Source: a virus. From it: a stretch of 64,000 nt of DNA. Under the pieces are notes generated by a model. The model ran no database searches. It worked only from the letters and a program-made list of their open reading frames with translations, and had not been told where the DNA came from. Position numbers and translations under genes: made by a program. The number at the start of each line of letters is the position of its first letter. The first letter of the stretch is position 1. The DNA lies in the IMG/VR virus record IMGVR_UViG_3300042860_003408, positions 21,866-85,865 of that record. One strand, given 5' to 3'. This document shows, piece after piece, positions 28,773-59,241 of the stretch.

Positions 28773-31700
28773 ATGTGCCCAAATATTAATGATAAAAAAA
28801 TAAGGAATGATTTTAATAAGATCGTTCAAGCGTTCGGTGGTCGACCAATGACTATTGATGAGTTTAAATACAAAGAATTGCGTGATGAGCGTAGCGGGGT
28901 CGATGACTTCGCTATGCAACATGCATACGCAGTTTGGGATAAAACAAATGGAGAGCCAAATTTAGACACTCCGGATATACTTAACTATTCTAAATTTGTA
29001 CTTAGTGGAGATAAGAAGTATAAGGCTGAATACGAGAAGAATGTAAATAATGGAGCTGGAATATTGCCTATATCTACAAATAGGGATTTATATAAAGAAC
29101 TAAATCTATTAAATGATGATGGAAATATCTTAACCTTCCCATACTCAAAGTTTCCTGACAATGAAAAAGGCGAGGCTAAATTCATAGAGGAGGTGTTTAA
29201 TAAAAAGTCGTCTAGAAATGACATCCAAGGTAAATACTCCTTATCGTTTAAAAAGTCCCCTAATAGTAAAGGTAGAGTTATATGGATAACTAAGCTGGAT
29301 GAGCCAAAAGAGCTGCAAGGCGAGATTGATTTTGATACTCCTGTATATAGCACACAAGAGAGATTGTCCGACTTATCTGAGGCTGATGAGATTATAGTTT
29401 CAAATTCGATTAAACAGACAGATGTTGTTCTATTTGGACATCCAACTATAGGAAAAAGTTTCCTTAAAAACAATGGAGCCGATAGTTTTATTTCTCTAGA
29501 TGACGACTATGCAGAAGAGATAAATAGAGAGGTTAGCGCCATTGCGATAAAATATAAAGTAGCCGAACATTTAGTGAAAGATGGCGGAAATATGCAATGG
29601 AACGTCGAGTATAACGATATGATGCAGAGGCTGTTTGATGCTGCCAAAAAAGAGGCCGCCTTATCTGGTAAAATGCTGTTCACGTCAAACACTAATTTAC
29701 TTAGAAACAATTCGTCTTCATTTGATAGAGTAATAAACTTAACTGATAAAGAATTCAAAGACAGGGCTAATGCTAGAGGAGTTAAGTATGATATTAATGA
29801 ATGGAAGGCTCAAATAAATGAAGTGGTAAGTAAATTTCCAAAAGAAAAAGTTATTACTACTGATAAATATCTATCCGACCTTCTTCCGAAAAAATCAACA
29901 GGAAATGACAGCGGAATAAATACTGTATTCGAGCAAAATCCAGAATTATCTAAAATTGGAACAAAGGAACAGTACTCACGGTATTTAGAAACGATATTTC
30001 CAGACAGCAAAGTAAAAGACATTGTATACCACGGAGGATCTCCTGCCGCAGATTTTAACAATCCTGAGTTTGGAACTAGTGGGTTCCATGGATTTTTTGC
30101 CACAATCAAAAGTGTTGCAGATGAATTCGCAAACAGATGGACTAGAAATAAGGGTACTACAGGAAAAACAAAGGCTATACTTGTTAACATACAAAATCCA
30201 GATATTACTGATAAATTGTACCAAGGAGAGTATAAAGAGTCTGTTGAATATATAAAAGCAAAGATAAATGAAGGCTCTAATGATGGAATTATAGCGACAA
30301 ATACAAATGATAAGTTCTCAGATAAGCTTGGGAGTTATGACCAATACGTCGTATTCGATAAGGAGCAGATTCATATTTTAGGCTCTAAGCAGGATATAGA
30401 AGGATTTAAGGCATTTGTAAAAACGACCGATTCTAAGGCGATTTCAGCCACTCAAAATAACGAGGATAGGCTAACCTCCATGTCTGCCGAGAAAGTGGCT
30501 CAGAACGTCTCTAAACGCCAAATAAAGGCCATTGTAAGAATAGCCGATGACCTTAGTAGAAGGTTTGGTGTAAAGTTCAATGTTATGAATAGAAATACAT
30601 CTATGTTTTATGGAGTTTCTAAGTCAATGAATACAGGAGCATATTATAAAGCTGGAGGCGCTGTATTTTTCTACGATACAATAAAGCCTAGTTATATTAT
30701 TCATGAAATGTTTGGTCACCCAATGATGTTTGCATTAAGAGCAAGCTCAGATCCAAAACATAGAGAGATATATGACGCGTTACTTGCGGAGGCAATGAAA
30801 AATACAGAGATAGTTAATGCTGTCAACAATTCATATATTGACGACGCTAAGACCATAAAAACATATGACGATGAAGTTGTAGGAGATGAAATAATTATTA
30901 GGTCTATAGAAAAAGAATATAACAATAGAGAGAATAGGAAGATAGCATACTTATGGTCTAGAGCTTTAAGAGCTCTGACAGAGACTATTAAAAGAATATT
31001 TGGAAACAACTCCATACCAACAGATATAAATCCATATATATCAATAGGAGATATGCTGGATTATGTATTGTACGGAAAGAATGCTGTTGATATATTATCT
31101 CTAGAGGATAAGGACTTAATGGCAAAGTCAGTCGACTCGATTACAAATGAAATAAAGGGAATAAATGGAGCTAACATAGCTATAGCTGAATTTCTTAATC
31201 TGTTTAAAAGCGATACTTCTAAGCAAAGAGCAATAGAGCATGGAATAAATGAATATTCAATTGAGAAAGAAAATGATTGTGCATATATTTTAGCATCATT
31301 CTCTCATCAGTTATACAAAATGTCTATTTCTAGAGATATAATAGTAGAAGATGGAAAAACAGGAAATCGCTTTGAGTTTAAAAAAGTTGATGATATATAT
31401 CAATTCCCAACTGACGATACTTTATATGGGTTAAAAAACTCTCACGTAATAGCATTTCTGAGGGCCGCTAGTAGGCTTGGAGATGGCGCCATTACAATTA
31501 AGTCAGATAGAACTGAGTTTATTGGCGTTATTATGAGATTTACTCCATCTATGCTTGTGTCTAAAATAGATGAAAATACAGTAGTCTTGTTTCCAGTAGA
31601 CAGAATGGCTGATATAGGCCCAGACTCATTTAATGTCTCATATAGAATGCTTGACTCAGAGATGGTTACATCGGATGAATTAAGTAAGTCTACAGCAATG

Positions 31701-42758: not shown

Positions 42759-42825
42759 TTGTCTATACAGGACTCGAACCTGTGACCTCGGATTTATCCG
42801 CGCACTCCCACCGCGCTAATAGACT
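42759..42825 (-). ncRNA. tRNA-like element TL1 (anticodon arm reduced to 4 bp + 4-nt loop)
   Basis: Minus strand GTCTAT-TA-GCGC-GGTGGGA-GTGC-G-CGGA-TAAA-TCCG-AGGTC-ACAGG-TTCGAGT-CCTGT-ATAGAC-AACA. Confidence 0.75.
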
Positions 42826-56691: not shown

Positions 56692-56930
56692 TTCTCTTTT
56701 TTTTAATTGTTTTTTATTTTGATAATAAAGTTTGCAATAAGACAGGATTTATGAGTTGTTCAAATAGATACCCCTTCTTAGGTGTCCACAAATTAGCATT
56801 GATAGGTTTGCTAGCACCTACCTTCCCGTCTACATATTTTCATAATCAACTAAGTCTTTTGTTTAGTCTAATTTGAATTCATCCTCCACCGACCACTTTT
56901 ATGCTTATGTAGTCTTTTCTTATTGCAATC

Positions 56931-57106
56931 GTAGGCAGTCACCGCATTGAAGGGTAGGCCCGAAGCCCGACTGCCCTAGAGCATGATTAACCAGCGTAAG
57001 CTAGTTCAACATACTCATTTCTGAATTGAATTGTTTTGTTGCCATTTATTGGCGTATATAGTCCTATCTATACCAATTCTGACGCCAATCAATACTATAC
57101 ACCCCC
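56931..57106 (-). ncRNA. ssrA: tmRNA coding piece (permuted gene); 3' end approximate
   Basis: Starts GGGGGTGTATAGTATTGA; ATAAAT-GGC resume context; tag frame 57043-56987 encodes GNKTIQFRNEYVELAYAG-TAA; downstream GGCAGTC/GACTGCC stem. Confidence 0.8.
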
Positions 57107-57349
57107 TTTTGTTATCTTATTCCCTGAAAATGAAAAACCTTTCATCCTTTTTATTTGTGAGCAAAAATCATTAAATGTTTTTATTTCATTTTTTGGTTTT
57201 TGTTCAATATAAAACAAATGAGAATAAAATCTATTTTCACCTTCACTAGAATATACTCCTACACAAATTACTTGAATATTTTTTATTTCTTCAAATAAAT
57301 TTTGTATCGACTCTTTTAGTGTAGCTCCATTGCATGTAATTGTCTTCAT
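57095..57349 (-). CDS. Hypothetical protein inside the tmRNA intervening segment
   Basis: 84-aa ORF; its last codons (GGG GGT GTA TAG) overlap the tmRNA 5' end. Confidence 0.6.
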   Translation of the reverse strand: MKTITCNGATLKESIQNLFEEIKNIQVICVGVYSSEGENRFYSHLFYIEQKPKNEIKTFNDFCSQIKRMKGFSFSGNKITKGGV

Positions 57350-57366
57350 TCTTAATTTTTAATTAG

Positions 57367-57437
57367 TGGAGGTGGGGCTTTCGAGGTCCCGTCTTGCTCG
57401 TCCATGATACAGCCTATTCCATTGCTGGTTTTTCGGG
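57367..57437 (-). ncRNA. ssrA: tmRNA acceptor piece (permuted gene); 5' end approximate
   Basis: ...TAGGCTGTATCATGGACGAGCAAGAC-GGGAC-CTCGAAA-GCCC-CACCTCC-A. CACCTCC pairs with GGGGGTG at 57106 and gives G3:U70. Confidence 0.8.
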
Positions 57438-57767
57438 CTATATTTCGTATAGTTTTAGGCCGACTCTTCTATTGATTTCATCAACAAGAGCATAGCCTAT
57501 CCTAATTCCATCAGTTACTGAAATAATAGTATCGTTGTCATGAAAATCCAATAACTGAACCTCGCGATTCACTATTGCTTTTAAGTCAGCATTACTGTAA
57601 TTTTTCAATAACTTATTTCGTAATTTCTTTTGCTTTTTAATGTCGCGTATTCTTACAACAACCTTGATTGAATTTGTAAAATTAGTGAACAGTTTTATTG
57701 TGGCAACAACTTCCTCTCTGCTATCGTTTGAGTGCAAAGATACTCGATTAAAATCTTCTTGCTTCAT
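57438..57767 (-). CDS. Hypothetical protein
   Basis: 109-aa ORF. Confidence 0.65.
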   Translation of the reverse strand: MKQEDFNRVSLHSNDSREEVVATIKLFTNFTNSIKVVVRIRDIKKQKKLRNKLLKNYSNADLKAIVNREVQLLDFHDNDTIISVTDGIRIGYALVDEINRRVGLKLYEI

Positions 57768-58398: not shown

Positions 58399-58530
58399 TC
58401 AAATCCTTTCCTTTTTAGTGAATGGATTCATTTTTGGCTTTTTCTTGCCTTTTATAGCAATTATCTCCTTGGCAATAATCTCCTTTGTCCCAGGACCGGT
58501 TTTGTCTCTTAATCTAATTGTGTTTCCCAT
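58399..58530 (-). CDS. Small basic hypothetical protein (43 aa, not in ORF track)
   Basis: MGNTIRLRDKTGPGTKEIIAKEIIAIKGKKKPKMNPFTKKERI-TGA. Confidence 0.4.
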   Translation of the reverse strand: MGNTIRLRDKTGPGTKEIIAKEIIAIKGKKKPKMNPFTKKERI

Positions 58531-58569
58531 ATTGATTACAGAATTTGTTGTTTTTAACTATTTTAATTG

Positions 58570-58771
58570 TGGGGATAGCCAGAGTCGAACTAGCTATTTT
58601 AATCTTCTTTAATGCCTATATCTACAATTGCTTTTCGAAATCCAATTATGTTTATTTGCATTCAGGTGAGATTACGTGATTAGGGTATGCCTAGTCTTGC
58701 AAGTCGGCGAACAGTTATCATCTGTTCTCGGCCTTAGGCATAGATTTCCCCATCCATTTCACTCTATCCCC
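58570..58771 (-). ncRNA. tRNA-like element TL5 with large structured insertion
   Basis: Perfect acceptor GGGGATA/TATCCCC-A, T-arm GCTAG-TTCGACT-CTGGC and D-loop-like AAATGGA; long interior with TATGCCTA/TAGGCATA and GAACAG/CTGTTC stems. Confidence 0.65.
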
Positions 58772-58779
58772 GTATTTTG

Positions 58780-58861
58780 TGCCACTTTAGAGATTCGAAC
58801 TCATCAGTCCATTTCTGGTTTCCGGTTCCTTATTAGGGCTATCATCCCAATAAGTAGTGGC
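58780..58861 (-). ncRNA. tRNA-like element TL6
   Basis: GCCACT/AGTGGC-A acceptor, GAG-TTCGAAT-CTC T-arm, CTTATTGGG/CCCTAATAAG hairpin in place of the D-arm. Confidence 0.55.
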
Positions 58862-59241
58862 GTTTGGTTAAAGCAATGAAGACTAATTTACTATCACCTA
58901 TCATTAATAGAAGATTAAGATTTGCGCTTGCATCATTGCTTTAATTTTTGACTCTTATTTGCAGTTAGTATCATACTGTATAAGTCAATTTCAGTCCTTG
59001 CAGTGGAATAAATATTTGTACGTAGTTTTCTCCACATGGGAGGACGTGGCTCGATTAGTATTACGATTGCAATCTCTACAAACTATTTCACGCTCTTTTT
59101 ACATATTTACATCTAACAAACTAATCACCTGCATGTGATTGATAATTATATCACTAAGCTACATTCACACTTAAGTGAAGAGGCTATTCTTAGATTTTTC
59201 GTCCTTAATTATCTATTGCTTCAATCTGAAATTGATTTATT

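Follow-up and report, generated by a model that had tools for sequence, protein, structure and literature searches.

Does a 64,000-nucleotide stretch of viral DNA encode a transfer-messenger RNA (tmRNA) whose two halves have changed places around a protein gene? The stretch (hereafter the window) is a 64-kb part of the 85.9-kb IMG/VR virus record IMGVR_UViG_3300042860_003408, 83% complete; all features of the locus lie on its minus strand, and coordinates are positions in the 64-kb window. A sequence-only reading had proposed a permuted tmRNA in a crAss-like phage, with an open reading frame (ORF) in its spacer. Homology, comparison with a relative (R) and helix covariation support that proposal, and we put at roughly 0.8 the probability that the locus is a genuine circularly permuted tmRNA gene in two pieces, kept under selection in a freshwater crAss-like phage. 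Judged from sequence, the pieces are homologous to tmRNAs, their order and sequence are conserved, their helices covary and the spacer ORF has coding character.

The two halves can be read directly from the minus strand as first described: a 3' half ending in CACCTCC-A at 57367, a spacer of 260 nt, and a 5' half opening with GGGGGTG at 57106. The features concerned are as follows.

57367 to 57437, minus strand: acceptor piece (3' tRNA-like half), with a conserved core at 57416-57366.
57368 to 57374, minus strand: acceptor stem, 3' strand, CACCTCC; U70 is 57370.
57100 to 57106, minus strand: acceptor stem, 5' strand, GGGGGTG; G1 is 57106, the predicted RNase P site.
57375 to 57390, minus strand: deviant T arm of 16 nt, defined by alignment to 11 standard relatives and identical in R.
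56987 to 57043, minus strand: tag reading frame, from resume codon GGC through GNKTIQFRNEYVELAYAG to the stop TAA at 56989-56987.

GGGGGTG and CACCTCC (57374-57368) form a 7-bp acceptor stem, in which the claimed G3:U70 pair was confirmed at 57104:57370. The acceptor piece ends in GCCCCACCTCC-A, with discriminator A73 at 57367 and C74 at 57366, and of the CCA only C74 is encoded. The same stem, G3:U70 and A73 included, recurs unchanged in 13/13 family members. On both strands of the 64 kb, GGGGGTG occurs twice and CACC[TC]CC six times; of the minus-strand copies of the latter, that at 57374 alone is near 57106, the rest lying at 29195, 15728 and 6598. The anticipated resume site is likewise present: AATAAAT-GGC at 57043 opens an 18-codon tag frame, GNKTIQFRNEYVELAYAG.

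The comparison with R, the closest relative found (helicase 69% identical to that of the window), is decisive for the tmRNA reading. A 3'-end pattern search of viral contigs returned 14 stretches, namely 11 standard tmRNAs and three copies of R, and a metagenome scan recovered R again on a 95.7-kb contig. The 34-nt 3' domain of R is identical to that of the window (34/34), the 16-nt T arm included, and is followed by an encoded CCA, a 122-nt spacer and then GGGGGTGCAAAGTATTGATTGGCGTC..., so that the order of the pieces is that of the window. With the pieces aligned separately, the acceptor core is identical at 47 of 51 positions (92%), nt 1-63 of the coding piece at 75% and the tag at 62%. Flanking ORF DNA is 50-51% identical, against 49.6 +/- 1.5 in shuffled controls, and the flanking proteins (E 0.5, 0.018 and 0.27) are barely or not recognisably related. 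Because the pieces are alike while the DNA around them is at the shuffled level, the tmRNA pieces are, by alignment, islands of conservation between the two phages. The tag of R, GTKTIQINNYVGLMSA (16 codons, ending MSA), is related to that of the window; several codon changes between them are synonymous, and both indels comprise whole codons.

Kinship to known tmRNAs was apparent at both ends. From its first nucleotide onwards, the 5' piece can be aligned with the starts of Rfam-confirmed standard phage tmRNAs (23/25 positions identical, E 1e-4 within the window), and a second such alignment covers 21/23 positions (E 0.002). A 5'-end pattern search found 19 stretches, among them the related record G009 and six freshwater phage contigs; in each of the six the pattern falls at nt 1 of a tmRNA, and the similarity extends past the positions used in the pattern. 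One of these (L130) scores 90.5 bits on RF00023; the tmRNA genes of the other five are split by a group I intron. The window's 3' piece shares with the 3' ends of those tmRNAs the arrangement GAGCAAGACG..TCGAAA..CCACCTCCAC, which was not used in the 5' pattern. The acceptor piece is also the window's best nhmmer match to the 3' end of a standard phage tmRNA, albeit a weak one (E 0.28). In the 11 standard tmRNAs, GGGGG lies approximately 350-380 nt upstream of the 3' end.

Both cross-piece pairings of helix 2 in the sequence-only reading were recovered.

57081 to 57088, minus strand: helix 2a, 5' strand, TTGGCGTC, pairing with 57402-57394.
57394 to 57402, minus strand: helix 2a, 3' strand, GACGAGCAA, on the acceptor piece.
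57068 to 57075, minus strand: helix 2b, 5' strand, TGGTATAG, pairing with 57412-57405.
57405 to 57412, minus strand: helix 2b, 3' strand, CTGTATCA, on the acceptor piece.

Helix 2a (57088-57081 with 57402-57394), first described as imperfect, forms 7/7 pairs around a 1x2 internal loop (G against AG). It is kept in 13/13 family members with 6-7 of the 7 pairs, one of which alternates between G-C (nine sequences) and A-U (four). Helix 2b (57075-57068 with 57412-57405) is paired at 8/8 positions in both the window and R; two pairs differ on both sides (U-A to G.U and G-C to A-U) and two on one side, a pattern with a chance of approximately 2% by rough arithmetic. Thus helix 2a is retained across the family, and helix 2b in R through compensatory changes. 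In both phages the head of the acceptor piece (57425-57412 in the window) could also pair elsewhere, here with 56936-56925, to give a further helix; the partner sites are non-homologous and overlap strong local hairpins.

The coding piece does not appear to end with the tag.

56700 to 56986, minus strand: structured non-coding tail of the coding piece, from the fold of 56700-57110.

The fold of 56700-57110 has a z of -3.58, and 0/100 shuffles were equally stable; the tail aligns to R at only 41%, and none of the pseudoknots PK1-PK4 was discerned in it. The coding piece therefore probably extends beyond 56931, towards about 56700.

Which phage carries this locus, and is the arrangement real? 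The window's DnaB-like helicase is 57-65% identical to those of GenBank uncultured phages such as cr118_1, cr53_1 and cr1_1 (Crassvirales) and 50-55% identical to those of IMG/VR genomes of approximately 100 kb with terminal repeats. Among 24 listed lake-water metagenome runs (24 studies), 15 contain at least half of the sampled words of the locus, and six of these 15 are potential sources of the record itself. Contigs from other lake-water runs match 57000-57220, 57275-57533 and 57226-57494 with zero differences, and both junctions between piece and spacer are reproduced in contigs of three other DNA runs. Because independent lake-water contigs carry both junctions unchanged, the arrangement is not an assembly artefact. 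The locus sequence is invariant across lake-water runs dated 2020-2024; with no variants in the covered parts of the locus in the runs examined, the population offers no covariation.

Several observations weigh against this tmRNA reading. ARAGORN found zero tmRNAs in the 64-kb window or in the native locus and, at its default settings, made no call on 12 re-joined and three spacer-trimmed constructs, so that the confirmation for which the sequence-only reading had looked to this program on native and re-joined sequence was not obtained. Nor did Rfam supply a tmRNA match above cut-off on the native locus with RF00023 or RF04321: no tmRNA family reached its gathering score or E<=10 on 1501 nt or 466 nt, RF00023 had no match in the window, and RF04321 (cut-off 47 bits) gave 6.5 bits (E 2.2) over the tag region only. 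The T arm measures 16 nt instead of 17, with the loop CTCGAAA, a C at position 54 and one A.C in its stem, and the D-loop GG reads AG. The window tag ends AYAG, unlike the usual ..AA. The covariation of helix 2b rests on two sequences, the window and R, and the gain on cofolding the two pieces (-18.9, against -11.9 +/- 3.4 for shuffled sequences) was equalled or bettered by 4/100 shuffles. Furthermore, a local hairpin of 57089-57082 with 57055-57048 (ATTGGCGT with ACGCCAAT) is a perfect 8 bp and uses the 5' strand of helix 2a, and this competitor is kept at 7/8 pairs in R via G.U-compatible changes. Finally, the only RNA-derived contigs, from one freshwater metatranscriptome library, match 57038-57213 and 57279-57427 exactly, spanning both predicted processing sites.

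How much do these points count? Taken alone, the model negatives would count against the tmRNA. The ARAGORN result says little, because the program also misses the Rfam-confirmed standard tmRNAs of G009, G017 and L130. We infer that Rfam fails on the window mainly through its heavy penalty for the 260-nt insertion. R aligns to the full RF04321 model (31.6 bits, E 2e-4), below the cut-off. With ARAGORN at -ps80, the three trimmed constructs gave a low-scoring call of standard form, with the same tag and other tRNA domains (57415-57391 and 56971-56931). At this setting the false-call rate is high (five calls for the window, 24 for 320 kb of shuffled sequence), and the calls, which are also not of the permuted model, were rejected as support. 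The outer local hairpin may be a different fold that the coding piece takes up before assembly, or may stand in for pseudoknot 1; a rival inner hairpin loses 2/6 pairs in R. The contigs across the processing sites may be DNA-derived; they count neither for nor against processing.

The tRNA-like domain departs from the standard in several points. The 11 standard relatives have a canonical 17-nt T arm, GNGGG-TTCGAAA-CCCNC, and that of the window is one nt short on the 3' side, leaving an acceptor and T stack of 11 bp rather than 12. This is not the canonical arm of a 5-bp stem and a 7-nt TPsiC-type loop, and since R keeps the same form it is a variant rather than decay; all of the T-arm and D-loop oddities are common to the two phages. 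Three related records, G004 (L117), G007 (L123) and G010 (L124), also lack the T-loop consensus (GGCAGTA, GTCGCA and AGACATA, respectively) and the D-loop GG, with tag frames intact. The two losses appear to go together in these records, and the tertiary lock between T loop and D loop seems dispensable in these crAss-like phages. A short acceptor and T stack under selection is informative about how much deviation RNase P, AlaRS, EF-Tu and SmpB can accept.

Could such an RNA serve another purpose? A tmRNA-derived decoy or inhibitor of host SmpB, AlaRS or EF-Tu, or an RNA that rescues ribosomes without a degradation signal, would involve no protein tagging. The shortened stack and the altered T and D loops, conserved in this form in R, would suit such a role, as would the unusual tag ends (AYAG in the window, MSA in R). 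We nevertheless regard it as unlikely: the two phages share the resume context and the tag frame, their differences including synonymous changes and whole-codon indels, which is unexpected for a frame that is not read, and both parts of helix 2 (2a and 2b) are preserved as they are in functional tmRNAs. Very unlikely, in our view, is a decaying remnant, in which a permuted tmRNA was disabled by insertion of the spacer gene and damage to the T arm and is now drifting. No program or model calls the window a tmRNA, the T arm is defective by canonical rules, and the spacer, the longest of 17 permuted loci, holds a gene absent from R. Yet the 'defective' T arm is identical in R despite flanks diverged to the shuffled level, helix 2b changes are compensatory, the tag frame is intact in both phages, and the sequence is identical across the 2020-2024 lake-water runs. 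Chance resemblance or an assembly artefact, to which short motifs in an AT-rich genome and an 8-nt repeat at chance level (AGACGGGA) might point, is effectively refuted by the 5' end match at E 1e-4, by R, which agrees at 34/34 positions and has its pieces in the same order, and by contigs of other runs that bridge both junctions. The repeat (57393-57386 and approximately 56819-56812) was separately considered as a duplication junction and rejected, approximately 0.4 being expected by chance (a rough estimate).

Family context comes from 17 related crAss-like records. A permuted tmRNA is present in 14/17, of which three (G007, G010 and G011) were read by eye from the same piece order; ARAGORN at default settings labels the tmRNA 'Permuted' in 11/17. 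RF04321 is passed by 10/18 records, the window's own being counted among the 18, and three more lie at 32-41 bits. G009 and G017 carry a standard one-piece tmRNA of 282 nt (95 and 91 bits; L102 1501-1782 and L103 1501-1782), and no tmRNA was found in G016, which is 48% complete. The RefSeq genome NC_055904.1 (cr273_1) has an annotated tmRNA feature, which ARAGORN calls permuted. Because most related crAss-like genomes carry one, permuted tmRNAs are ordinary in this phage order and thus not new here.

What is unusual here is the acceptor and T stack one pair short, the 260-nt spacer with its coding-like ORF, and the position of that ORF's TAG at nt 10-12 of the tmRNA. The tRNA-like domain of the window is 97% identical to that of R, 80% on average to those of the 11 standard tmRNAs and 57% on average to those of 12 permuted crAss-type genes, a mean that includes one unreliable value (cr273_1). 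Because the window lies closer to the standard than to the permuted crAss-type genes, the comparison gives a hint that the lineage of the window and R permuted its tmRNA independently, starting from the standard phage form, and that this gene has been permuted more than once.

The space between the pieces is occupied as follows.

57107 to 57366, minus strand: intervening segment (spacer) of 260 nt, between A73 and G1.
57095 to 57349, minus strand: ORF84, the gene for an 84-amino-acid protein that fills the spacer, with its TAG at 57097-57095.

The stop codon of ORF84 does lie inside the 5' end of the tmRNA, as had been noticed: the TAG is tmRNA nt 10-12, and the last three sense codons together with it make up nt 1-12. 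ORF84 matches the genes of this phage in codon usage, and its length too is that of a real gene. The codon score per codon is +0.17 in its own frame and -1.07 in the two alternative frames; of 5000 shuffled spacers, 0 contain an ORF of at least 84 codons (median longest ORF, 16 codons). Among 5.8 billion proteins no homologue was found other than ORF84 itself, on 14 contigs, and the protein matched no significant PHROG or Pfam family. The ESM Atlas model is a small alpha/beta protein of moderate confidence (pTM 0.66) with weak fold neighbours.

The spacers of 16 other crAss-like permuted loci measure approximately 15-196 nt, that of the window being the longest of the 17, and an ORF of more than 13 codons occurs only in the window (84 amino acids) and in G010 (53 amino acids). 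The G010 ORF (L124:1573-1734, minus strand; 53 codons) ends in a TAA that directly abuts G1 of the coding piece, and its product shows no sequence relation to ORF84. ORF84 is not present in R. The 122-nt spacer of R instead holds (L180:3313-3415, plus strand) a cloverleaf-like four-way junction with an 8-bp closing stem and the hairpin GTGGG-TTTGAGC-CCCAC; neither ARAGORN nor Rfam calls a tRNA in this fold, which might serve as a signal for processing or be a tRNA in decay.

A precedent for a spacer gene was sought in the literature. As contents of tmRNA intervening sequences, passages of PMC11915505 name a tRNA gene and a repetitive element and no protein gene. Our literature search, outside the supplementary tables of PMC11915505 and PMC9004378, found no paper on a protein gene in a tmRNA intervening sequence and, within the same limit, none on tmRNA in crAss-like phages.

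How might the permuted tmRNA be made and used? Processing, charging and tagging, together with the fate of ORF84, are proposed here from the layout. A minus-strand transcript would run through ORF109, the acceptor piece, ORF84, the coding piece and ORF121. In this precursor the 7-bp acceptor stem and helices 2a and 2b would hold the two pieces together in an alanine-type tRNA-like domain. Host RNase P would cleave before G1 (57106), and a 3' nuclease and the CCA-adding enzyme would complete the acceptor piece at 57367/57366. The two RNAs would remain base-paired, to be charged by host AlaRS and partnered by host SmpB; no SmpB gene (PF01668) was found in G000, G018, G010 or G009, and therefore host SmpB would be needed. 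Translation would then resume at GGC 57043, appending GNKTIQFRNEYVELAYAG.

The spacer appears to have been taken over by a lineage-specific gene of 84 codons, with consequences for its expression. RNase P is predicted to cleave ORF84 between codons K81 and G82. With the stop at tmRNA nt 10-12 and this cleavage site, ORF84 would be readable to its stop only as long as the precursor is intact; the message remaining after maturation would have no stop codon, a loss that we infer from the coordinates and that holds only if cleavage by RNase P occurs ahead of 57106. Any one transcript could thus be either processed or translated through the whole of ORF84, not both. The locus would then offer a crAss-like case of a stable-RNA precursor that doubles as a messenger, with the mature RNA supplying the stop codon, and, the stop codon being inside the mature RNA, such coupling between RNA processing and translation is directly testable.

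A more tentative and, to our minds, rather doubtful extension is that the intervening segment of permuted tmRNAs is a general slot for small genes, wired in this phage to maturation as a self-limiting expression switch, and that the permutation may be independent. If true, each transcript would yield either full-length ORF84 protein or mature tmRNA, and the stop-less ORF84 message would itself become a substrate for trans-translation.

Comparison with known systems shows both common ground and departures. Permuted two-piece tmRNA genes are found in Alphaproteobacteria, some Betaproteobacteria and Cyanobacteria, and are represented by RF01849, RF01850, RF01851 and the merged model RF04321 (PMC11915505). 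Like these, the window has its acceptor piece upstream of its coding piece, an acceptor stem and helix 2 formed across the pieces, G3:U70, A73 and an intervening sequence for removal. Unlike them, it scores below every model, has a 16-nt T arm with the loop CTCGAAA, carries a protein gene as its 260-nt intervening sequence, and belongs in sequence to the family of standard phage tmRNAs.

In phages, 53/133 unique tmRNAs were called two-piece by ARAGORN, and two-piece tmRNAs occur in the aquatic myophages Melnitz, a phage of OM43, and the pelagimyophages (PMC9004378). The window resembles these in being permuted, from an aquatic phage and presumably dependent on host SmpB; it differs in belonging to a crAss-like rather than a T4-like phage, in the ORF in its spacer and in having no ARAGORN call. 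In further contrast to the system of Melnitz and the pelagimyophages, no riboswitch family of Rfam matched the window locus.

Within the crAss-like phages of gut and rumen, cr273_1 (Suoliviridae; annotated 'transfer-messenger RNA, SsrA') and the records G001-G015 share the phage order, the permuted layout and tags starting GN. Their tRNA-like domains are only approximately 57% identical to that of the window, however, their T loops are mostly canonical, their spacers measure 15-196 nt and only G010 has a spacer ORF. Standard freshwater tmRNAs (L130 and L170-L182) are closer, with approximately 80% identity in the tRNA-like domain, the same acceptor stem and the same internal loop in helix 2a, but are unpermuted and have the canonical 17-nt T arm. 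Finally, tmRNA genes with a group I intron in the T loop constitute the tmRNA_intron form (PMC11915505). These likewise carry foreign sequence, sometimes with an ORF, to be removed from the RNA; there, self-splicing restores one piece, whereas the window is permuted and lacks an intron match. Separately, the freshwater contigs L132, L136, L141, L142 and L144 were seen to carry tmRNAs of standard order, from the same sequence family as that of the window, in which a group I intron (RF00028, 68.8 bits) splits the T loop.

These results also bear on how tmRNAs are detected. Standard tools miss this conserved variant, since ARAGORN at default settings and Rfam at gathering scores fail on both the window and R, and ARAGORN also overlooks standard relatives with Rfam scores as high as 90-95 bits. 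Similarity searches around the locus were equally unproductive: blastn of the locus against GenBank phages and the 17 related records gave only short chance matches, and searches for related loci with ORF84, ORF109 and ORF121 as queries gave no match. A recurrent 21-nt blastn match was considered as a motif and rejected, being the start of a conserved gene in relatives. A scan of the locus for promoters and terminators returned nothing above chance level.

Elsewhere in the window, two further regions drew attention. Rfam reports a tRNA on the minus strand at 42759-42825 (38.1 bits), flanked by the primase gene and the next ORF; it is absent from the ARAGORN output. The 0.7 kb at 58530-59240, minus strand, is without a credible minus-strand ORF; its G+C content rises to 0.45, and it contains T-loop-like motifs at 58799 and 58639.

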